Shown: positions 1,776-36,012, counted from the stretch's first letter. The stretch is DNA of 64,000 nt from Escherichia coli 042 (GCF_000027125.1 NC_017626.1), one strand, 5' to 3'. Program-made: numbers and translations. Notes: generated by a model not told the origin, from the letters alone.

Positions 1776-3458
1776 TTGTTGTTAAGTCTCGGGGTCAACG
1801 TGTTGACCCCGTTGACGGCCTTCGCGGGAGTGCGGTTGCGCTGGCCTGCCATGATGCGACTCACTTGCATCGGCATTCTGGCGCAGTTCGCGCTCCTGCT
1901 GCTCGCCTTTGGCGTACTGACGTATTGTTTTCTCATCAGCGATTTCTCGGTTATTTATGTCGCCCAACATAGCTACAGCCTGCTGTCGTGGGAACTCAAA
2001 CTGGCAGCGGTGTGGGGCGGTCATGAAGGTTCGCTGCTGCTTTGGGTGCTGCTGCTTTCCGCCTGGAGCGCGCTGTTTGCCTGGCATTATCGGCAGCAAA
2101 CCGATCCGCTATTTCCGCTGACGCTAGCCGTTTTATCTCTCATGCTCGCCGCACTGCTACTGTTTGTGGTGCTGTGGTCCGATCCCTTCGTGCGGATATT
2201 TCCACCAGCAATCGAAGGCCGCGATCTCAATCCGATGCTGCAACATCCCGGTCTTATCTTCCATCCGCCGCTGCTTTATCTCGGCTATGGCGGTTTGATG
2301 GTGGCGGCGAGCGTGGCGCTGGGGAGTTTACTGCGCGGCGAGTTTGATGGTGCCAGCGCCCGAATTTGCTGGCGCTGGGCACTACCTGGCTGGAGTGCAT
2401 TAACGGCGGGGATCATCCTCGGTTCCTGGTGGGCCTATTGCGAACTGGGCTGGGGCGGCTGGTGGTTCTGGGATCCGGTGGAAAACGCCTCTTTATTACC
2501 CTGGCTTTCTGCCACTGCGCTGCTGCACAGTTTATCCCTGACACGCCAGCGGGGGATTTTCCGCCACTGGTCGCTGTTGCTGGCGATAGTTACTCTGATG
2601 CTGTCGCTGCTGGGCACCTTAATTGTCCGTTCTGGCATTCTGGTTTCGGTTCATGCGTTCGCACTGGATAACGTCCGCGCCGTGCCGTTGTTCGGCCTGT
2701 TTGCACTGATTAGCCTTTCGTCTCTGGCTCTGTATGGCTGGCGAGCGCGGGACGGTGGCCCGGCGGTGCGTTTTTCGGGATTATCGCGGGAAATGTTAAT
2801 CCTCGCTACGCTGTTGCTGTTTTGCGCAGTGCTATTGATCGTGCTGGTGGGAACGCTTTATCCGATGATTTACGGCCTGCTGGGCTGGGGACGCCTCTCC
2901 GTTGGCGCGCCGTATTTTAACCGCGCGACGTTACCGTTTGGTCTGTTGATGCTGGTGGTGATTGTGCTGGCGACGTTTGTCTCTGGCAAACGCGTGCACC
3001 TTCCGGCGCTGGTAGCTCATGCGGGCGTGCTGTTATTTGCCGCAGGGATCGTGGTCTCCAGCGTCAGCCGTCAGGAGATCAGCCTGAATTTACAGCCGGG
3101 TCAGCAGGTGACGCTGGCAGGATACACCTTCCGTTTTGAGCGCCTCGATCTGCAAGCCAAAGGCAATTACACCAGCGAAAAAGCGATAGTGGCGCTGTTT
3201 GACCATCAGCAACGCATTGGTGAATTAACGCCGGAGCGGCGTTTTTACGAAGCACGTCGTCAGCAAATGATGGAGCCGTCAATTCGCTGGAATGGTATCC
3301 ATGACTGGTATGCGGTCATGGGCGAGAAAACCGGATCGGATCGTTACGCTTTTCGTTTGTATGTACAATGCGGTGTGCGCTGGATCTGGGGGGGAGGATT
3401 GTTGATGATTGCGGGCGCATTGTTAAGCGGATGGCGGGGGAGGAAGCGCGATGAATAA
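1776..3458 (+). CDS. nrfE: NrfE, CcmF-like cytochrome c heme lyase component
   Basis: 560 aa polytopic membrane ORF with CcmF-like tryptophan-rich region (WGGWWFWDPVENASLLPW); exact start codon uncertain. Confidence 0.9.
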   Translation: MLLSLGVNVLTPLTAFAGVRLRWPAMMRLTCIGILAQFALLLLAFGVLTYCFLISDFSVIYVAQHSYSLLSWELKLAAVWGGHEGSLLLWVLLLSAWSALFAWHYRQQTDPLFPLTLAVLSLMLAALLLFVVLWSDPFVRIFPPAIEGRDLNPMLQHPGLIFHPPLLYLGYGGLMVAASVALGSLLRGEFDGASARICWRWALPGWSALTAGIILGSWWAYCELGWGGWWFWDPVENASLLPWLSATALLHSLSLTRQRGIFRHWSLLLAIVTLMLSLLGTLIVRSGILVSVHAFALDNVRAVPLFGLFALISLSSLALYGWRARDGGPAVRFSGLSREMLILATLLLFCAVLLIVLVGTLYPMIYGLLGWGRLSVGAPYFNRATLPFGLLMLVVIVLATFVSGKRVHLPALVAHAGVLLFAAGIVVSSVSRQEISLNLQPGQQVTLAGYTFRFERLDLQAKGNYTSEKAIVALFDHQQRIGELTPERRFYEARRQQMMEPSIRWNGIHDWYAVMGEKTGSDRYAFRLYVQCGVRWIWGGGLLMIAGALLSGWRGRKRDE

Positions 3459-3834
3459 AGGGCTTCTCACGCTACTGCTGTTATTTACCTGTTTTGCGCG
3501 CGCTCAGGTTGTAGACACCTGGCAATTCGCTAATCCGCAACAACAGGAACAGGCGTTAAATATTGCCAGCCAGTTACGCTGCCCGCAGTGCCAGAATCAG
3601 AACTTACTGGAATCCAATGCGCCGGTGGCAGTCAGTATGCGCCATCAGGTTTACAGCATGGTGGAAGAGGGGAAAAGTGAAGTCGAAATAATTGGCTGGA
3701 TGACCGAACGCTACGGAGATTTTGTTCGCTATAACCCACCGTTAACCGGTCAGACTCTGGTGTTGTGGGCGCTGCCAGTGGTGTTGTTACTGCTGATGAT
3801 ACTGATCCTCTGGCGAGTGAGGGCGAAGCGATGA
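3451..3834 (+). CDS. nrfF: NrfF, CcmH-like thiol-disulfide heme lyase component
   Basis: 127 aa; signal peptide; LRCPQCQNQ redox motif typical of CcmH; overlaps nrfE end. Confidence 0.9.
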
Positions 3835-6117: not shown

Positions 6118-6388
6118 TGGATGCCTGATGCGACGCTTGCCGCGTCTTATCAGGCCTACGCTAGACTGCGCAATAGCTTGATTTAGGGTGATTTTGTAGG
6201 TCGGATAAGGCGTTTACGCCGCATCCGACATCAATATCTGATGCGACGCTTACCGCGTCTTATCAGGCCTACGCCAGACTGCGCAATAGCCTGATTTAGC
6301 GTGATTTTGTAGGTCGGATAAGGCGTTTACGCCGCATCCGACATCAATGCCTGATGCGACGCTTGTCGCGTCTTATCAGGCCTACCTT
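6118..6388. repeat. REP/BIME cluster: about 2.3 tandem copies of a ~116-120 bp unit, each containing inverted REP palindromes
   Basis: Directly visible repetition of gatgcgacgcttgccgcgtcttatcaggcctac... and gtaggtcggataaggcgtttacgccgcatccgaca; REP consensus-like sequence between convergent gltP and yjcO. Confidence 0.85.
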
Positions 6389-7169: not shown

Positions 7170-9317
7170 TTACGCCAGTGCCGCTTCGCGCAGGCGAGTT
7201 TTCAACTTGTTGTACTCGTCAATCACGTACTGCTCGGCGGCGCGCTGATCGGCGATCGACTCGACGCGCACGGCGCAGTATTTGTATTCCGGCGTTTTCG
7301 TAATCGGGCTTAAGTTTTCGGTAACCAGCTCGTTACAGGCACCAATCCACCACTGGTAGGTCATATAAATCGCCCCTTTGTTCGGACGATCGCTGACCTG
7401 CGCACGGGTGATAATTTTGCCTTTACGCGAGTGCACCCAAACCAATGCCTCATCTTCAATACCCAGACGTTTGGCGTCTTCGGTATTGATTTGTGCGTAG
7501 CCAGGTTCATCAGCCAGCGCCGCCAGTGCCGCACAGTTACCGGTCATCGAACGGCAAGAGTAGTGACCAACTTCACGCACCGTTGACAGTACCATCGGAT
7601 ACTCGTCGGTGAGTTTGTCGATTGGCGCTACCCAGTCGCAGGTGAAGAACTGCGCCAGACCGTTCGGGGTATCAAACTTCTCTTTAAACAGATAAGAAGT
7701 CCCCTGATCGGCATCTGAAGTATCGCGGCAAGGCCACTGAATGAAGCCCAGTTCGCCCATTTTCTCGTAAGTCGCACCGTAGAAATCCGGGCACAGATGA
7801 CGCAACTCATCCCAGATCTCCTGGGTGTTGTTGTAGTGCATCGGATAACCCATACGAGTGGCAATTTCACTGATGATTTGCCAGTCCGTTTTCAGATCCC
7901 ATTTCGGTTCAACTGCTTTGAAGAAACGCTGGAAGCCACGGTCAGCCGCAGTAAACACGCCTTCATGCTCGCCCCACGACGTTGACGGTAAAATAACATC
8001 CGCCGCCGACGCGGTTTTGGTCATAAAGATGTCCTGAACGATAACCAGTTCCAGATCTTCAAAGGCTTTACGTACTGCCGACAGCTCCGCGTCAGTTTGC
8101 AGCGGATCTTCGCCCATAATGTACGCGGCACGCACTTCGCCATGCGCTGCGCGGTGCGGCAGCTCGCTGATGCGATAGCCGGTATGCGCTGGCAGGCTTT
8201 CCACGCCCCAGGCTTTGGCGAATTTCTCGCGGTTAGCCGGATCTTTCACGTACTGGTATCCCGGATACGTATCCGGCAGCGCGCCCATATCGCAGGCACC
8301 CTGCACGTTGTTCTGACCACGAACCGGGTTTACACCCGCATGCGGCTTACCGAGGTTACCGGTCAGCATCGCGAGGCTGGTCAGAGAACGCACGGTTTCC
8401 ACGCCCTGGTAGAACTGGGTTACACCCATGCCCCACAGGATGGCGGCGCTTTTCGCCTGGGCATACATCCGTGCCGCCTGACGAATCTCACTGGCGCTGA
8501 CGCCGGTGATATCTTCAACCGACTCCGGCGTGTAGCCTTCAACGATTTTACGATACTCTTCAAAGCCTTCTGTACGGGAAGCGACGAATGCTTTGTCGTA
8601 CAGATTTTCTTCAATAATGACATGGCCCATCGCATTCAACAGCGCGATGTTCGAGCCGTTTTTCAGTGCAATGTGGATGTCCGCAATGCGCGCGGTTTCA
8701 ATTTTGCGCGGATCGCAGACGATAATTTTCGCCCCGTTACGTTTAGCGTTAATTACGTGATTCGCCACGATTGGGTGGGAATCCGCCGGGTTGTACCCGA
8801 AAACGAACACTAAATCGGTATTATCAATTTCGTTAATAGCATTGCTCATTGCGCCATTACCGACCGATTGGTGCAGACCTGCAACCGATGGGCCGTGTCA
8901 GACACGAGCGCAGCAGTCAACGTTATTGGTACCAATAACGGCGCGCGCAAATTTTTGCATTACATAGTTGGTTTCGTTACCCGTACCACGCGAGGAGCCG
9001 GTCGTCTGGATGGCATCCGGACCGTACTTCTCTTTGATGGCGCTCAGGCGCTCGGCAACGTAATTCAGTGCCTCATCCCAGGAAACAGGTTCGAGTTTGC
9101 CGCCACGCTGGCGACGGATCATGGGGGTTTTCAGGCGCGGGGTCAGGATCTGGGTATCGTTAATGAAATCCCAGCCATAATAACCCTTCAGACACAGGGT
9201 ACCCTGGTTGGTTTTCCCCTGCGCTGCCTCCGCCCGGACGATTTTGCCGTTATCGACGACCAGGTTGATTTTGCAACCTGATGCGCAATAGGGGCAAACC
9301 GTGACGACTTTTTTCAT
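7170..9317 (-). CDS. fdhF: Formate dehydrogenase H (selenocysteine/molybdopterin enzyme); in-frame UGA at 8898-8900 decoded as Sec
   Basis: ORFs 8898..9317 and 7170..8849 are in the same frame, separated only by TGA (complement of tca at 8898-8900); together 715 codons; N-terminal Cys cluster (CPYCASGC). Confidence 0.95.
8850..8897 (-). other. SECIS mRNA stem-loop directing selenocysteine insertion at the fdhF UGA
   Basis: Immediately 3' of the UGA on the coding strand: CACGGCCCAUCGGUUGCAGGUCUGCACCAAUCGGUCGGUAAUGGCG, which I recognise as the fdhF SECIS hairpin. Confidence 0.85.
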
Positions 9318-17516: not shown

Positions 17517-17550
17517 TGTTGAGTCTAGAGCAGGCATCGCCCCTCACCCA

Positions 17551-19301: not shown

Positions 19302-20437
19302 CAGAACACCCTTTTACCCTGACGCCAGACGTGGTCGATATGAATGTGGTTGCCCTTGCGATGCGCCAGCACCAGGTCGGCGCGTTTGCCCTCGCCAATC
19401 ACCCCGCGATCCTGAAGATTAAGCGCCTGCGCCGGATTTTTAGTCACCAGCTTCACCGCCTGCGGCAGCGTAAAGCGGTTGCTCTCGTCATCGGCGACGC
19501 GAAATGCCGCATCGAGCAGGCTGGCGGGGTAGTAGTCGGAAGAGAGGATATCCAGCAGGCCAAGCTGCGCCAGTTCACTGGCCGCCACGTTGCCGGAGTG
19601 CGAACCGCCGCGCACGATATTCGGCGCGCCCATCAGCACGTTCATGCCATGCTTGCGCGAGGCTTCTGCCGCTTCGAACGTGGTGGGAAATTCGGCGATC
19701 ACGCTGCCAAGCTGGTGGGATTCGGCAACGTGCGCGTGCGTGGCGTCATCGTGGCTGGCGAGGGCAATGTGTCGCGCGCGGCACATTGCGGCGATGGTTT
19801 CGCGATTTGGCTGCGACCAGCGTGCGGCGAGCGCCAATTGCTCTTCTTCGTACTGCTGCATCTGCGCATCGGTGAGGGAATATTTGCCCTGATAATATTC
19901 GCGATACTTCTCGCGATTGGCGAACTGGCGCTGGCCTGGCGAGTGGTCCATCAGCGATACCAGCGTCACCGGTTCGCGCTGCACCAGTTTTTCAAACAGC
20001 GGCAACGTGGTGTGGTGCGGCAGTTCGCAGCGCAGGTGCAGGCGGTGCTCGGCGCGGTTGACGCCGCGTTTCTGCGTCTCTTCGATGGCGTTGATCATCT
20101 TCTCCAGATTCTCCAGCCGATCGCCGCCGTCGCGCACATCACCAATCGCCACGGCGTCCAGTACGGTGGTGATGCCGCTTGCCACCATCAGCGCGTCGTG
20201 GCTGCTCATCGCCGAATGGGCGGGCCAGTCGACTTTCGGGCGCGGGGTGAAGAATTTATCGAGGTTGTCGGTATGCAGCTCAATCAGGCCGGGTAGTAGC
20301 CAGCCACCTTCGCCGTCCATCGCTTCCGGCTGGCGGCTCTGGCTTTCGGCAAAGGCGCGAATTTCGCCATCCTGTACTTCCAGTGAACCGTGCACCACTT
20401 CGTTTTCCAGCACCAGTTTGACGTTATTGATAATCAT
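19301..20437 (-). CDS. phnM: PhnM, RPnTP diphosphatase (amidohydrolase fold)
   Basis: 378 aa; operon position; overlapping stop/start with neighbours. Confidence 0.9.
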
Positions 20438-21114
20438 GAAGAGGCTCCCATCGGGTGCAGGCGGTCGGCGACGTCATTGCGTACGGCTTCGTCATGGAAG
20501 ATACCGACGATGGCTGCGCCACGGGCTTTAGCTTCGAGAATCAGTTCCACCACCGCGGCGCTGTTTTTGGCGTCCAGCGAGGCGGTAGGTTCGTCGAGCA
20601 GCAGAATGGGGTAGTCGACGATAAAGCCACGGGCGATGTTGACGCGCTGCTGTTCGCCGCCGGAGAAGGTCGATGGTGCAAGGTGCCACAGGCGTTCAGG
20701 CACGTTCAGGCGCGTCAGTAATCGGGCGGCTTTAGCGGCGCAGGCTTCACGCGGTACGCCGGTATCGAGCAGAGGCTGCATCACCACTTCCAGTGCCGAA
20801 ATACGCGGGATGACGCGCAGAAACTGGCTCACCCAGCCGATGGTGGTTTTGCGGATCTCCACCACTTTGCGGGCTGGCGCGGTGACCAGGTCTACCCATT
20901 CCTCACCGTGTTTGATCTGGATTTGCCCTTCGTCGGGCAGATAGTTGGCGTACAGCGAGCGCAGCAGGGTTGATTTTCCGCTGCCGGAGTGGCCGTGAAG
21001 CACCACGCATTCGCCTGCGTTGACGGTGAGCGAGGCACGTTGTAAGACGGGCAGGCGCACGCCGTTTTGCTGGTGCAGGATGAAGGTTTTACTGACGTTT
21101 TGTACGTTAATCAT
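20434..21114 (-). CDS. phnL: PhnL, ATP-binding component of C-P lyase complex
   Basis: Start chosen at [11 protein letters not shown] (226 aa) inside the 240-aa track ORF; Walker [10 protein letters not shown]. Confidence 0.9.
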
Positions 21115-21157
21115 TTTTCGCCTCGTGGTTCGCATATTGGGGATCGGCGCGCGCATT

Positions 21158-21207
21158 GCCCCTCACCCTAGCCCTCTCCCCTCTGGGGAGAGGGCCGGGG
21201 TGAGGGG
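21158..21207. repeat. GC-rich imperfect palindromic element (boxC-like) between phnL and phnK
   Basis: cccctcaccctagccctctcccctctggggagagggccggggtgagggg forms nested inverted repeats; a related sequence recurs at 26472-26558. Confidence 0.7.
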
Positions 21208-21230
21208 ACCAGCGCGCACGGTGTTGCAAC

Positions 21231-21989
21231 TCAATTCTGCAAAACCGATGACACCAGCAGCTGGGTATACGGATGATGCGGGTCGTCGAGCACGCGGTCG
21301 GTTAACCCACTCTCCACTACTTGCCCCTGCTTCATCACCAGCAAACGGTCCGCCAGCAGGCGGGCGACGCCAAGATCGTGGGTAACAATCACTACCGCCA
21401 GGTTCAGCTCCACCACCAGGCCGCGCAGCAGGTCGAGCAGGCGCGCCTGCACCGACACATCCAGCCCGCCGGTTGGTTCGTCCATAAACACCAGCTTCGG
21501 ATGCGTCACCAGGTTGCGGGCAATCTGCAAACGCTGCTGCATGCCGCCGGAAAAGGTGGTTGGCAGGTCGTCGATCCGGTTAGCGGGAATCTCGACCTCT
21601 TCCAGCCACTTCTGCGCGGTGGCGCGAATATCGCCGTAATGACGCGCCCCGGTCGCCATCAGCCGCTCGCCGATATTGCCGCCTGCCGACACCTGGCGGC
21701 GCAGGCCGTCGAGCGGATGCTGATGCACCACGCCCCATTCGGTGCGCAGCAGGCGACGGCGATCGGCCTCGCTCATGCCATAGAGGGAACGGTTTTCATA
21801 GTGAATCTCCCCTTGCTGCGGCGTCAGACGCGCGGAAATTGATTTCAGCAGCGTGGTCTTCCCGGAGCCGGACTCCCCGACGATGCCCAGCACTTCCCCC
21901 GGCCATAAATCAAAAGAGACATCGCTAAAGCCTTTGCCCGGCGCGTAAAGGTGGGTCAGGTTATTGACCGAAAGTAAAGGTTGATTCAT
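21231..21989 (-). CDS. phnK: PhnK, ATP-binding component of C-P lyase complex
   Basis: Start chosen at MNQPLLSVNNL (252 aa); Walker A GESGSGKTT; ABC signature. Confidence 0.9.
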   Translation of the reverse strand: MNQPLLSVNNLTHLYAPGKGFSDVSFDLWPGEVLGIVGESGSGKTTLLKSISARLTPQQGEIHYENRSLYGMSEADRRRLLRTEWGVVHQHPLDGLRRQVSAGGNIGERLMATGARHYGDIRATAQKWLEEVEIPANRIDDLPTTFSGGMQQRLQIARNLVTHPKLVFMDEPTGGLDVSVQARLLDLLRGLVVELNLAVVIVTHDLGVARLLADRLLVMKQGQVVESGLTDRVLDDPHHPYTQLLVSSVLQN

Positions 21990-22831
21990 TGGTTTTTTGC
22001 CTCGCTCTGTTGGCGGCAATAATCGGTATCGGAGCAGACAAACATGCGGTTTCCGGCGTCATCCAGCACCACTTCGTCGAGATAGCTGTGGGTCGATCCG
22101 CAGATGGCGCATGGCTCATCCCACTGCTGAACGGTGAACGGGTGATCGTCGAAATCGAGGCTTTCCACGCGGGTAAACGGCGGCACCGCATAGATGCGCT
22201 TCTCGCGTCCTGCGCCGAACAGCTGCAGGGCGGGCATCATGTTCATTTTCGGATTATCGAATTTTGGGATCGGCGATGGGTCCATGACGTAGCGCCCGTT
22301 CACCTTCACCGGATAGGCATAAGTGGTGGCGATATGACCGAAGCGGGCGATATCTTCATACAGTTTCACCTGCATCACGCCGTACTCCTCCAGCGCGTGC
22401 ATAGTGCGGGTTTCCGTTTCGCGCGGCTCGATAAAGCGCAGCGGTTCCGGGATCGGTACCTGGAAAATAATGATCTGATCTTCGGTCAGCGACGTTTCGG
22501 GGATGCGGTGGCGGGTCTGGATAAGCGTCGCATCGTCCGTACGTTCAGTGGTGTTTACCCCGGTCACGCGCTTAAAGAAGTTGCGAATTGATACGGCGTT
22601 GGTGGTGTCATCCGCACCCTGGTCAATCACCTTCAACACGTCGCTTTCGCCAATCACGCTGGCGGTAAGCTGGATACCACCAGTTCCCCAGCCGTACGGC
22701 ATCGGCATCTCGCGCCCGCCAAACGGCACCTGATAACCGGGGATCGCCACCGCTTTTAAGATGGCGCGGCGGATCATGCGTTTGGTCTGCTCGTCGAGGT
22801 AGGCAAAGTTGTAGCCGCTCAGATTAGCCAT
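21986..22831 (-). CDS. phnJ: PhnJ, C-P lyase catalytic subunit (radical SAM-like, Cys cluster)
   Basis: Start chosen at MANLSGYNFAYLDEQ (281 aa); C-terminal CxxCGSxxxYLDE cysteine motif. Confidence 0.9.
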   Translation of the reverse strand: MANLSGYNFAYLDEQTKRMIRRAILKAVAIPGYQVPFGGREMPMPYGWGTGGIQLTASVIGESDVLKVIDQGADDTTNAVSIRNFFKRVTGVNTTERTDDATLIQTRHRIPETSLTEDQIIIFQVPIPEPLRFIEPRETETRTMHALEEYGVMQVKLYEDIARFGHIATTYAYPVKVNGRYVMDPSPIPKFDNPKMNMMPALQLFGAGREKRIYAVPPFTRVESLDFDDHPFTVQQWDEPCAICGSTHSYLDEVVLDDAGNRMFVCSDTDYCRQQSEAKNQ

Positions 22832-25667: not shown

Positions 25668-26447
25668 TCAGATAAAGTGCTTACGCAACCGTTGAGAGAG
25701 GAAATCCAGCAGGCTGACCGTGACGATAATCAGCACCATCAGGGCGCAGGTTTGCTGGAACTGGAAACCGCGAATCGCTTCCCACAGCGTGACGCCGATC
25801 CCGCCCGCGCCGACCATGCCAACAACGGTGGCCGAACGGACGTTGGATTCGAAGCGATAGAGGGAGTAGGAGATCAGCAGCGGCATCACCTGCGGCAGCA
25901 CGCCGTAGAGGATCTCTTCGAGCTTGTTGGCACCGGTGGCGCGAATACCTTCCACCGGGCCGGGTTCAATTGCTTCTACCGCTTCGGAAAGCAGTTTGGA
26001 GAGCACGCCGGTGGTGTGGATAAACAGCGCCAGCACGCCAGCGAACGGGCCAAGGCCGACGGCGACCACGAACAGCATGGCGAAGACCATTTCGTTAATG
26101 GCGCGGCAGGCGTCCATCAGGCGGCGTACGGGCTGGTAAACCCACCACGGCACCAGGTTTTCGGCGCTCATCAGACCGAAGGGGATGGAGAGAACCACCG
26201 CCAGCGCGGTGCCCCAGACGGCGATTTGCAGCGTGACGGCCATTTCGGTGAGGTAATCCTGCCACTGGCTGAAATCGGGCGGGAAGAAGTCGGCGGCGAA
26301 GGTTGCCATGTTGCCGCCGTCTTTAATCAGCGTGAGCGGGGCCATTTCCGCGCCCTGCCACGAGACGACCAGCACGGCGAGAACAATGGCCCAGCTCAGA
26401 AGCGAGAACCAGCTGCGCTTGGGTGGGGCGATGGTGATGGTTTGCAT
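25668..26447 (-). CDS. phnE: PhnE, phosphonate ABC transporter permease (uninterrupted reading frame)
   Basis: Continuous 259-aa polytopic membrane ORF; no frameshift within the gene. Confidence 0.85.
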
Positions 26448-26471: not shown

Positions 26472-26558
26472 CCCTCTCCCTGTGGGAGAGGGCCGGGGTG
26501 AGGGCATCAGCGTGCGCATTTTCCCCTCATCCTAACCCTCTCCCTCAAGGGAGAGGGG
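26472..26558. repeat. Two GC-rich palindromic elements (boxC-like) between phnE and phnD
   Basis: ccctctccctgtgggagagggccggggtgagggc and cccctcatcctaaccctctccctcaagggagagggg; same family as 21158-21207. Confidence 0.7.
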
Positions 26559-28978: not shown

Positions 28979-29137
28979 GATGGTGACCTCAGTTAAGAGA
29001 AGCCAGTTAAGTGTAGTTCGAAATTTATACAGATGAGAGGGAAGCCTGATAAGACGCGGTCAGCGTCGCATCAGGCAGTCGGCATCGTTGCCGGATGCGG
29101 CGCGAGCGCCTTATCCGGCTTACCGATCACAATACAA

Positions 29138-34744: not shown

Positions 34745-34794
34745 GCTGAAACGGATGGCCTGATGTGACGCTGTCTTATCAGGCCAATTGAAGT

Positions 34795-34811
34795 CTTAAG
34801 GTTCACTTAAT
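34795..34811 (+). promoter_or_regulatory. PmrA (BasR) box upstream of pmrR
   Basis: CTTAAGGTTCACTTAAT is a hexamer direct repeat with 5-bp spacer, matching the PmrA box pattern CTTAAT-N5-CTTAAT, about 45 bp upstream of the pmrR ATG. Confidence 0.7.
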
Positions 34812-34855
34812 CTCTGACGCGCATACTCTCCTCCAGGTTAACGGAGGAGAGTGCA

Positions 34856-34945
34856 ATGAAAAACCGTGTTTATGAAAGTTTAACTACCGTGTTCAGCGTG
34901 CTGGTGGTCAGCAGCTTTCTTTATATCTGGTTTGCCACGTACTGA
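34856..34945 (+). CDS. pmrR: PmrR, 29-aa membrane peptide (LpxT inhibitor)
   Basis: ATG at 34856 preceded by GGAGGA; encodes MKNRVYESLTTVFSVLVVSSFLYIWFATY; below the ORF-track size cutoff; its 3' end overlaps the convergent basS 3' end. Confidence 0.8.
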   Translation: MKNRVYESLTTVFSVLVVSSFLYIWFATY

Positions 34946-36012
34946 TCTTTCTTCAGCCGTACCCAGGCCCGCGTGCCGGAAGTCTCTTGCCGGTTTTGCA
35001 GGAAAAACTGCCCGTGATGCAACTGTGTAATGCGGCTGACAATACTTAACCCCAGACCAATCCCGCCATAACGGCTGTCCATACGTACAAACGCTTTACT
35101 CAACTCCCCGCATTTACTCTCATCAATACCCGGTCCTTCATCTTCAACGGCCATGACCGCTCCGCCATCTTCTTGCAGCTTAATCATAATGTTGCTGCCT
35201 TGCGGGCTGTAACGATGGGCGTTTTCTACCAGGTTTCGCAATAACATCCGCAGCAGGGTTGCATCACCTTGAACGGTGATGTCGGCGGCGCTCTCTGGCA
35301 ATAGCAGGGTTTGCTGTCGCTGGTCGAGCATGGTACTGAGTTCGTCATACGAGGGGAGAATGACATCTTCCAGCAGTTTTACATGTTGATAATTACCGGA
35401 AGAAAATGACTGTCCGGCACGCGCCAGTTGCAGCAGCTGGGAGACACTCTCCATCATCTGATCAAGCCGTGCCACTAACGGTGCTACATCAATGTGATGC
35501 GTTTTCGCCAGCAGTTCCAGATGCAAACGCACCCCCGCCAGTGGCGTTCGCAGTTCGTGCGCGACGTCAGCGGTAAACAACCTTTCGTTATCCAGCGTGC
35601 TGGTCAGGCGACTGACCAGATCGTTCAACGCCGAAACCACCGCTTCGATTTCGAGGGTGGCGCTGTGAATGGCAATAGGCGTTAAGTTGTCGGCGGTGCG
35701 CGCTTCCAGCTCTTTTTGCAGCTCCGCCAGCGGCCGGGTGATGCGGCGTACCGCCTGATAGCAGATAAATAGCGTCAGGCTGACCATAAAGACGCCGGGG
35801 ACGATCAGGCTGGCGACCGCCTCGCGGATCTCACGCATGATGTGGCGATCGTTGTTGCGATTGTCGCGTAGCGCCTGCTCAAACAGCTGAATCTGCTCGG
35901 TACTTTCATGCCATAGCCAGAAGACGCTGATCAGCTCAAACACCAACAAAATGGCCCCAATGGTCAATATCAGCCGTTGGCGCAGCGATATTGGTCGGCG
36001 CAGAAAACGCAT
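34921..36012 (-). CDS. basS: BasS (PmrB) sensor histidine kinase
   Basis: HisKA and HATPase motifs (HELRTPL, GIGLGLSIV); start uncertain between 36012 and 36021. Confidence 0.9.
   Translation of the reverse strand: MRFLRRPISLRQRLILTIGAILLVFELISVFWLWHESTEQIQLFEQALRDNRNNDRHIMREIREAVASLIVPGVFMVSLTLFICYQAVRRITRPLAELQKELEARTADNLTPIAIHSATLEIEAVVSALNDLVSRLTSTLDNERLFTADVAHELRTPLAGVRLHLELLAKTHHIDVAPLVARLDQMMESVSQLLQLARAGQSFSSGNYQHVKLLEDVILPSYDELSTMLDQRQQTLLLPESAADITVQGDATLLRMLLRNLVENAHRYSPQGSNIMIKLQEDGGAVMAVEDEGPGIDESKCGELSKAFVRMDSRYGGIGLGLSIVSRITQLHHGQFFLQNRQETSGTRAWVRLKKDQYVANQI

Follow-up and report, generated by a model that had tools for sequence, protein, structure and literature searches.

A BoxC repeat in the phnK-phnL gap of Escherichia coli as the probable one-unit state of a length-variable array

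The phn operon of Escherichia coli carries a GC-rich palindrome between phnK and phnL, which raises the question of whether this sequence is a dedicated regulatory element or an ordinary repeat. The stretch of DNA analyzed here (64,000 nucleotides, referred to as the window) is E. coli/Shigella-like and shows 99.5% identity to E. coli across adiA-melA. Genes were identified by way of the RefSeq annotation of E. coli loci with 95 to 98% identity to the window. The phn operon is located on the minus strand, and the palindrome lies in a gap of 116 nt between the phnK stop codon and the phnL ATG. The original prediction regarded this gap as the only sizeable one in the distal operon, and the annotation bears this out: from phnF to phnP, the junctions otherwise overlap or abut. 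In the proximal operon, a gap of 125 nt separates phnD and phnE and holds a second BoxC copy. The junction is composed of the following features:

21231-21233, minus strand: phnK stop codon TGA (sequence; RefSeq annotation of homologous E. coli loci)
21149-21217, no strand: whole inverted repeat with arms 21149-21181 and 21185-21217 (repeat search; RNA and DNA folds)
21112-21124, minus strand: phnL start codon (21112-21114) with Shine-Dalgarno sequence GAGG (21121-21124) (sequence; RefSeq phnL coordinates; fold)

In the mRNA, the outer stem begins 11 nt and the inner stem 23 nt downstream of the phnK stop. The phnL start codon and the GAGG stretch are positioned 3' of the hairpin and are mostly unpaired in the predicted fold. 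For annotation, the repeat matters in that it produces a false upstream phnL ATG at 21156. A reading in which the phnL coding sequence reaches into the repeat (a 240-aa ORF from 21156) was considered and rejected as artefactual, since the homologues comprise 226 aa and begin at 21114 behind GAGG. The in-frame ATG inside the repeat (window 21154-21156) is a possible source of start-codon misannotation for phnL. The phnE gene of the window is intact (259-aa ORF, 25668-26447, minus strand); in K-12 it is annotated as a pseudogene.

Positions 21158 to 21207 read gcccctcaccctagccctctcccctctggggagagggccggggtgagggg, a GC-rich nested palindrome as originally described. A repeat search revealed that the inverted repeat is bigger than the 50 bp first noted and spans 21149-21217, with arms of 33 nt that are 82% complementary and a loop of 3 nt. 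An outer GCGCGC clamp surrounds the BoxC core. RNA and DNA folds were computed with ViennaRNA, which considers Watson-Crick pairing only. The 121-nt intergenic RNA (minus strand, phn sense) has a predicted folding energy of -69.7 kcal/mol, compared to -44.8 +/- 3.4 for shuffled sequences (z = -7.36, rounded -7.4), and none of 200 shuffles was as stable. The 51-nt core alone reached a predicted -50.2 kcal/mol as RNA, and the 69-nt element reached -63.0 as RNA and -34.1 as DNA. The predicted inner stem comprises 22 bp with one C.A mismatch, and the outer GC clamp comprises 6 to 8 bp. The flanking CCCCTCACCC and GGGTGAGGGG blocks are predicted to pair together, which lengthens the central stem to 22 bp. 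The 21-mer GGAGAGGGCCGGGGTGAGGGG occurs three times in the window with up to three mismatches, compared to 0.00 expected occurrences. A chance palindrome at 21149-21217 was ruled out by the shuffle folds and this 21-mer count.

The element was compared with published repeat families. The TMECO pattern has been defined as 5'-CCCTCNCCC N3-6 GGGNGAGGG N3 GGGNGAGGG-3'; K-12 has 23 copies, which are always intergenic, with types A (second loop TTA) and B (second loop CCG) paired on opposite strands (Holder 2015, PMC4666352). The phnK-phnL element matches this pattern on both strands with zero mismatches:

21172-21206, plus strand: complete TMECO/BoxC motif of type B, CCCTCTCCC-CTCTG-GGGAGAGGG-CCG-GGGTGAGGG (exact match to the pattern of PMC4666352)
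21160-21194, minus strand: complete TMECO/BoxC motif, type-A-like, second loop CTA (exact match to the pattern of PMC4666352)
21172-21194, no strand: central stem CCCTCTCCCC / GGGGAGAGGG with loop TCT at 21182-21184 (alignment with the IAI39, TCM3e1, ST2747 and CFSAN018748 alleles)

The two motifs overlap and have the central stem in common. The second loop of the minus-strand motif is one base off the TTA of type A, which the two-unit alleles at phnK-phnL carry. BoxC, the PIT element, TMECO and HPG1/HPG2 are one family (Bergler 1992; Hoyne 2000, 2002; Holder 2015, PMC4666352; Kaplan 2016, PMC5100583). BoxC was described as a sequence of about 56 bp with 22 to 32 copies in K-12 (Bergler 1992; PMC2267715), and HPG1/HPG2 were described as G-quadruplex motifs (Kaplan 2016, PMC5100583). 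The same module, CCCCTCACCCTAACCCTCTCCCCAGAGGGGCGAGGGGACCG, is found upstream of K-12 fabI (envM), where BoxC was reported for the first time; this site is present in Kaplan's table (PMC5100583). The element agrees with BoxC in pattern, loop types, intergenic site, multiple copies and the pairing of A and B motifs on opposite strands (A-like here). These results indicate, at the level of sequence, that the element between phnK and phnL is a real BoxC copy, so the boxC-like identity proposed for it was confirmed.

Comparison with other members of the family revealed further likenesses. The blocks CCCTCTCCC, GGGAGAGGG and GGGTGAGGG are exact, the type B loop is CCG, the array is unstable from locus to locus, and a plain stem-loop arises by partial deletion of a pair. 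The element differs from the family in that its motifs overlap completely on one stem (n = 1) instead of forming two hairpins about 40 nt apart, that its A-type loop is CTA and not TTA, and that its exact allele is absent from 5,426 complete E. coli genomes. The supplements of Holder et al. 2015, which cover 63 TMECO loci, contain no mention of phnK, phnL, phnD or phnE. Both the family and the manner of the allele's origin are already known, and the element is ordinary.

Assignment to REP/BIME, whose consensus palindromes usually form inverted pairs, was rejected, since the element, when aligned to the BIME allele of K-12, bears no sequence resemblance to it within the boundaries that the two have in common. 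The two repeat types have identical boundaries at this junction, are GC-rich palindromes and have a similar RNA stability (-61 versus -69 kcal/mol), but their sequences are unrelated, and BoxC is without the GCCGGATG..CATCCGGC core. A search of the whole window against Rfam 15 gave no gathering-threshold match at the locus; at E <= 10, applied to the locus only, generic hairpin families were found, all far under threshold. The REP-derived family naRNA4 (REP325-type) matches other sites of the window (29043-29120, minus strand; 6199-6269 and 6312-6382, plus strand) and not the phnK-phnL element. In the yjdN-yjdM gap, K-12 has about five tandem units of approximately 100 nt that match window 29044-29127, where the window has a single unit. 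Above the gathering threshold, Rfam also reported the sRNA STnc630 (181 bits, 34787-34952, plus strand) and SECIS_2, a selenocysteine insertion element (87 bits, 8851-8905, minus strand).

A search for other copies of the family identified two more sites within the window:

26472-26557, no strand: second BoxC locus in the phnD-phnE gap, with a type B motif (plus strand, 26472-26504) and a type A motif with one mismatch (minus strand, 26524-26557)
17540-17550, no strand: remnant CCCCTCACCC just downstream of phnP (pattern search; comparison with K-12)

The phnD-phnE pair has the two-hairpin form, with an RNA fold of -65.6 kcal/mol (z = -5.7). At yjdP-phnP, where the window keeps only CCCCTCACCC, K-12 has a full two-hairpin BoxC array, which corresponds to HPGQ 51 (PMC5100583). 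Strain EcPF15 has the short form of the window downstream of phnP. With the 76-nt element as the query, 23,543 places were found in 4,421 E. coli genomes, with a median of 6 per genome, and 33 of these matches were plasmid-borne. The element therefore belongs to a multi-copy family, both in the window and in E. coli genomes, and is not unique to this locus.

The alleles of the phnK-phnL junction were counted in 5,426 complete E. coli genomes, about 5,384 of which have the operon. They share the boundaries ..CGTGGTTCG and CTCAATTC.., which enclose a variable segment:

21133-21229, no strand: part of the phnK-phnL gap that differs among alleles (alignment with K-12 and Ecol_316)
21139-21158, no strand: left flank GGGGATCGGCGCGCGCATTG (direct repeat D1; comparison with the phnD-phnE array of strain S51)

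In the window, the variable segment is entirely BoxC-derived; in K-12 and about 89% of E. coli, a REP pair (BIME) is located between the same boundaries. This BIME was found in 4,840 of the 5,426 genomes, and for the K-12 allele a fold of -61.0 kcal/mol is predicted there. About 543 genomes (e.g., IAI39, CE10, TCM3e1 and ST2747) were found to have a two-hairpin BoxC array with a gap of 178 nt, and a three-hairpin array with a gap of 242 nt was found in one (CFSAN018748). The one-hairpin form of the window was found in none of the 5,426 complete E. coli genomes. A four-hairpin array with a gap of 298 nt is present at 3260-3557 of QNRL01000011.1 (L009), which is labelled Pseudocitrobacter faecalis DSM 27453; Tandem Repeats Finder assigned it a period of 61 nt and 3.4 copies. 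The gap thus measures 116, 178, 242 and 298 nt for n = 1, 2, 3 and 4 units, and no fewer than five length alleles exist at this locus. In each E. coli genome with the operon, the junction is occupied by a BIME or by a BoxC array (4,840 plus 543 versus about 5,384).

Two side observations concern the descent of these loci. The phn genes of L009 are 92 to 93% identical to the window in DNA, and its PhnK and PhnL proteins are about 99% identical; the Citrobacter and Enterobacter loci show 80 to 83%. The much closer match to the window suggests either that an Escherichia-type phn operon was transferred or that the record is mislabelled. On both sides of the junction (window 20400-22100), the genes are 98.4% identical to those of Ecol_316, which has the BIME allele, and 96 to 97% identical to those of TCM3e1, which has the BoxC allele. 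This suggests that recombination has made a mosaic of the operon around the repeat.

Alignment of the BoxC alleles revealed a common design. An outer arm, CCCCTCACCC, is followed by n units of CCCTCTCCCC-loop-GGGGNGAGGG with a spacer of approximately 38 nt, and a second outer arm, GGGTGAGGGG, completes the array. The unit period is 61 to 64 nt, and in the predicted RNA of every allele, the same outer helix closes the whole array. The left flank at 21139-21158 corresponds to the sequence that joins neighboring units in BoxC arrays (GGGGATCGGCGCGCACGTTG in strain S51), which indicates that it is repeat-derived and not a unique spacer. Of the array, which comprises 2, 3 or 4 units in other genomes, the central stem at 21172-21194 is the sole hairpin unit left. 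The window allele equals the IAI39 two-unit allele minus exactly 62 bp, which is the distance between the two direct CCCTCTCCCC repeats of 10 nt that bound the deletion. In addition, one substitution is private to the window allele, which reads TAG in place of the TAA of the two-unit alleles. Judged by this alignment, the window allele represents a length-variable array in its one-unit state. The 62 bp would have been lost by replication slippage or by recombination between the direct CCCTCTCCCC repeats, with slippage as the likely route. In the "palindrome effect" described by Holder et al. (PMC4666352), paired TMECOs lose part of both motifs and a plain stem-loop remains; by comparison of the alleles, the 62-bp deletion in the window is an instance of this effect.

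The one-hairpin form could also be a sequencing or assembly artefact caused by a jump across a two-hairpin array. Its absence from all 5,426 complete genomes fits this explanation, as does the position of the lost segment between direct repeats within strong secondary structure. We consider an artefact very improbable. The allele carries the private TAG for TAA, deletions of this kind have been documented as real polymorphisms (Holder, PMC4666352), and metagenome contigs commonly contain fused hairpins built in the same way. Assembly collapse is unlikely because the direct repeats, with only 10 nt, are too short for it.

The instability of the array can be related to the DNA itself. The G/C-rich blocks can form a hairpin, a triplex or a G-quadruplex in vitro, and this capacity probably underlies the high rate of length change. 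Consensus oligonucleotides form intrastrand purine-motif triplexes in vitro (Holder 2015, PMC4666352) and undergo a K+/Mg2+-dependent switch between G-quadruplex and hairpin in vitro; the published CD and NMR data concern such consensus oligonucleotides. Together with the greater variability of TMECO loci compared to control loci (Holder, PMC4666352) and the at least five length alleles at phnK-phnL alone, these properties would suit a DNA-level element that acts through a triplex, a G-quadruplex/hairpin switch or a cruciform on replication, recombination or supercoiling. Such a role is doubtful. No triplex was detected in vivo by footprinting, and the duplex dominates when the complementary strand is present (Holder et al., PMC4666352). 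As judged from the folds, the complete Watson-Crick hairpin of the fused form should prevail over triplex or quadruplex. Instability is a consequence and does not in itself speak for a purpose.

To place the E. coli alleles in context, the phnK-phnL spacing was gathered with PhnK across at least 80 species other than Escherichia and Shigella. Among the species listed, the spacing is mostly short. The close Enterobacteriaceae listed have 7 to 18 nt in eight loci, REP-type palindromes in seven and a BoxC array in one. Some relatives (Citrobacter, Leclercia and Enterobacter) have a gap of 7 to 9 nt. The sequence TAA-GAGGCCAAC-ATG forms the junction of Citrobacter sp. FP75 and Leclercia, where the stop codon adjoins the ribosome-binding site. 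One to three REP-type palindromes, which differ in number and orientation, were found in Enterobacter cloacae, E. asburiae, Kluyvera, Pluralibacter, Cedecea, Citrobacter werkmanii and strain RIT691. Comparison of these loci shows that the ancestral spacing was 7 to 18 nt, with the phnK stop next to the phnL ribosome-binding site. By the same comparison, REP-type palindromes have filled the junction independently in many lineages. Relatives with a short gap and no hairpin indicate that the hairpin is not required by the operon. The phnK-phnL junction thus presents itself in the alignments as a site that tolerates insertions and where palindromic repeats accumulate.

The phnD-phnE junction, one of the few nonoverlapping junctions of the operon and the only other one compared, was analyzed in the same manner. 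K-12 has REP there, the window and EcPF15 each have a BoxC pair, and S51 has a double pair with a period of 127. EcPF15 combines BoxC at phnD-phnE with BIME at phnK-phnL, which shows that the two sites vary independently.

The original prediction attributed partial termination to the hairpin. A scan of 20400-22100 for a stem followed by a T-run found no terminator-like site on either strand, and no minus-strand promoter was found in the same region. In the mRNA, CAAUGCGCGCGCC comes after the hairpin and contains no U-run; the sequence following the stem is CAATGCGCGCGCC. According to the summary by Holder 2015 (PMC4666352) of the work of Hoyne & Maher 2002, PIT elements have no promoter or terminator activity, and RNA polymerase is unaffected in vitro and in vivo. 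The hairpin resembles Rho-independent terminators as a GC-rich stem-loop downstream of a stop codon but differs from them in that it has no U-run, has a far longer stem and sits within an operon whose downstream genes are required. This result indicates that the hairpin is not an intrinsic terminator, and the termination claim did not hold.

A partial intrinsic terminator that reduces transcription of phnL-P would draw on the strong GC-rich stem-loop in the transcript and on a published presumption. Repeats of the form CCCTCTCCC-XX(X)-GGGAGAGGG, with about 100 copies per genome in Enterobacter sp. 638, are presumed to act as terminators (Taghavi et al. 2010, PMC2869309). These repeats have the identical central stem, and they duplicate or triplicate at gene 3' ends, which matches the arrays of two to four units at phnK-phnL; they differ in that outer GGGTGAGGG blocks are not mentioned in PMC2869309. 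The chance that this reading applies at phnK-phnL is very small. Besides the missing T-run and the PIT results reported through Holder, the pathway requires phnL-P, and in phosphate-starved K-12 these genes are transcribed together with the rest of the operon.

Effects of the hairpin on mRNA decay and translation were considered separately. REP stem-loops are a model for the shielding of upstream mRNA from 3' exonucleases. By analogy, the stem-loop in the phn mRNA would be expected to block 3'-to-5' exonucleases and to favor the phnC-phnK segment. The great stability of the RNA stem makes such an exonuclease-barrier role plausible, as does the presence, at the same site in most E. coli, of a REP pair whose fold is about as stable (-61 kcal/mol). 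For K-12, in which the junction has the BIME allele, RNA-seq work has reported a phnGHIJK sub-transcript and coverage that falls along the operon; for the BoxC allele, these data support the barrier reading weakly and indirectly. The stem-loop would also separate phnK termination from phnL initiation and thereby break the ancestral coupling, while the phnL ribosome-binding site is left free outside the stem in the predicted fold. We infer such an uncoupling of phnK and phnL translation by analogy. To our knowledge, no RAYT-type enzyme, no binding of DNA gyrase, IHF or Pol I and no mRNA-stabilising effect has been shown for BoxC.

These considerations lead to the question of whether the hairpin is a selected intercistronic mRNA element, equivalent to REP/BIME, that sets the stability or translation of phnC-K versus phnL-P. 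The very stable RNA stem, the K-12 REP pair of similar stability at the same place and the sub-transcript with decreasing coverage in K-12 are in line with such a function, and palindromes have been acquired at phnK-phnL in about half of the sampled Enterobacteriaceae. We regard this reading as unlikely, but it keeps a real share of probability because every E. coli with the operon has a BIME or BoxC. Relatives with a 7- to 9-nt gap do without a hairpin, and unlike in a tuned regulator, the number of units varies from 1 to 4 and the type varies between REP and BoxC. The same REP/BoxC alternation at phnD-phnE fits insertion tolerance and not a specific function, and the published PIT tests, as relayed by Holder, found no effect on transcription. 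A broader variant, in which the phnK-phnL and phnD-phnE boundaries are selected for some very stable stem-loop and REP/BIME and BoxC are interchangeable recruits, has a slim chance in our estimate. If it were true, the recruited stem-loop would set the ratio of PhnC-K products to PhnL-P.

The fused hairpin was also found outside E. coli. The design CCCTCACCC-NNN-CCCTCTCCCC-NNN-GGGGAGAGGG-NNN-GGGTGAGGG, a fused form of 47 nt, is present in at least 120 JGI metagenome contigs (L089-L208), mostly from sediment or wetland, with 40 to 50% GC and unrelated AT-rich flanks. The exact allele of the window (TAG/TCT/CCG) was not found among the 120 contig matches listed. The internal triplets co-vary: perfect complementarity was found in 48 of the 118 distinct loci listed, compared to an expected 18 +/- 3.5. 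Several contigs hold multiple related hairpins, some of them 4 to 6. In sixteen of the contigs listed, the hairpin lies within a conserved element of approximately 115 nt that has no Rfam match. This longer element, tagattcttacat..tctgagaattttcttctaacatttt-[hairpin]-gaaatttcaaatatctttggctagaattt, occurs in both orientations (L099, L105, L108, L111, L124, L130, L138, L144, L170, L183, L185, L198 and others); a small RNA or a miniature mobile element are two possible identities for it. TMECOs have been reported in 262 proteobacterial genomes, and GC-rich triplex motifs have been reported in cyanobacteria (Holder et al., PMC4666352). One possibility is that a much wider family, produced by some generating or mobilising mechanism, is built around the long hairpin of BoxC.

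Insertion of BoxC as a miniature mobile element by a trans-acting transposase, as proposed for REP and RAYT, would account for a dispersed multi-copy intergenic family, for the same stems in at least 120 unrelated environmental contigs, some within the longer conserved element of ~115 nt, and for the boundaries shared by the REP and BoxC alleles of E. coli. We nevertheless judge it improbable. The alleles compared show no target-site duplication, the shared GAG being too short, and no terminal inverted repeats beyond the palindrome itself. Only 33 of the 23,543 matches are on plasmids. We know of no transposase associated with BoxC. TMECOs show no association with transposons, phages or plasmids (Holder et al., PMC4666352).

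Taken together, the element is very probably a BoxC copy that was brought to the one-unit state of its array by the 62-bp loss and that is a nonessential, unstable repeat and not a dedicated regulator. Effects of the hairpin on the transcript would then be by-products of its structure. The functional half of the original prediction, differential decay or partial termination, was not supported by the analyses here. For the biology of the operon, the finding is of little import; the family has been described four times since 1992 without a demonstrated function. Its value lies in the phnK-phnL junction as a compact natural allelic series, which comprises the empty junction of related genera, the REP pair and BoxC arrays with n = 1, 2, 3 and 4. 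Since all alleles lie between identical boundaries in a well-studied operon, the series would offer a clean test of the effects of BoxC and of array expansion and contraction. It could address whether BoxC affects mRNA stability or translational coupling and how arrays change in length.
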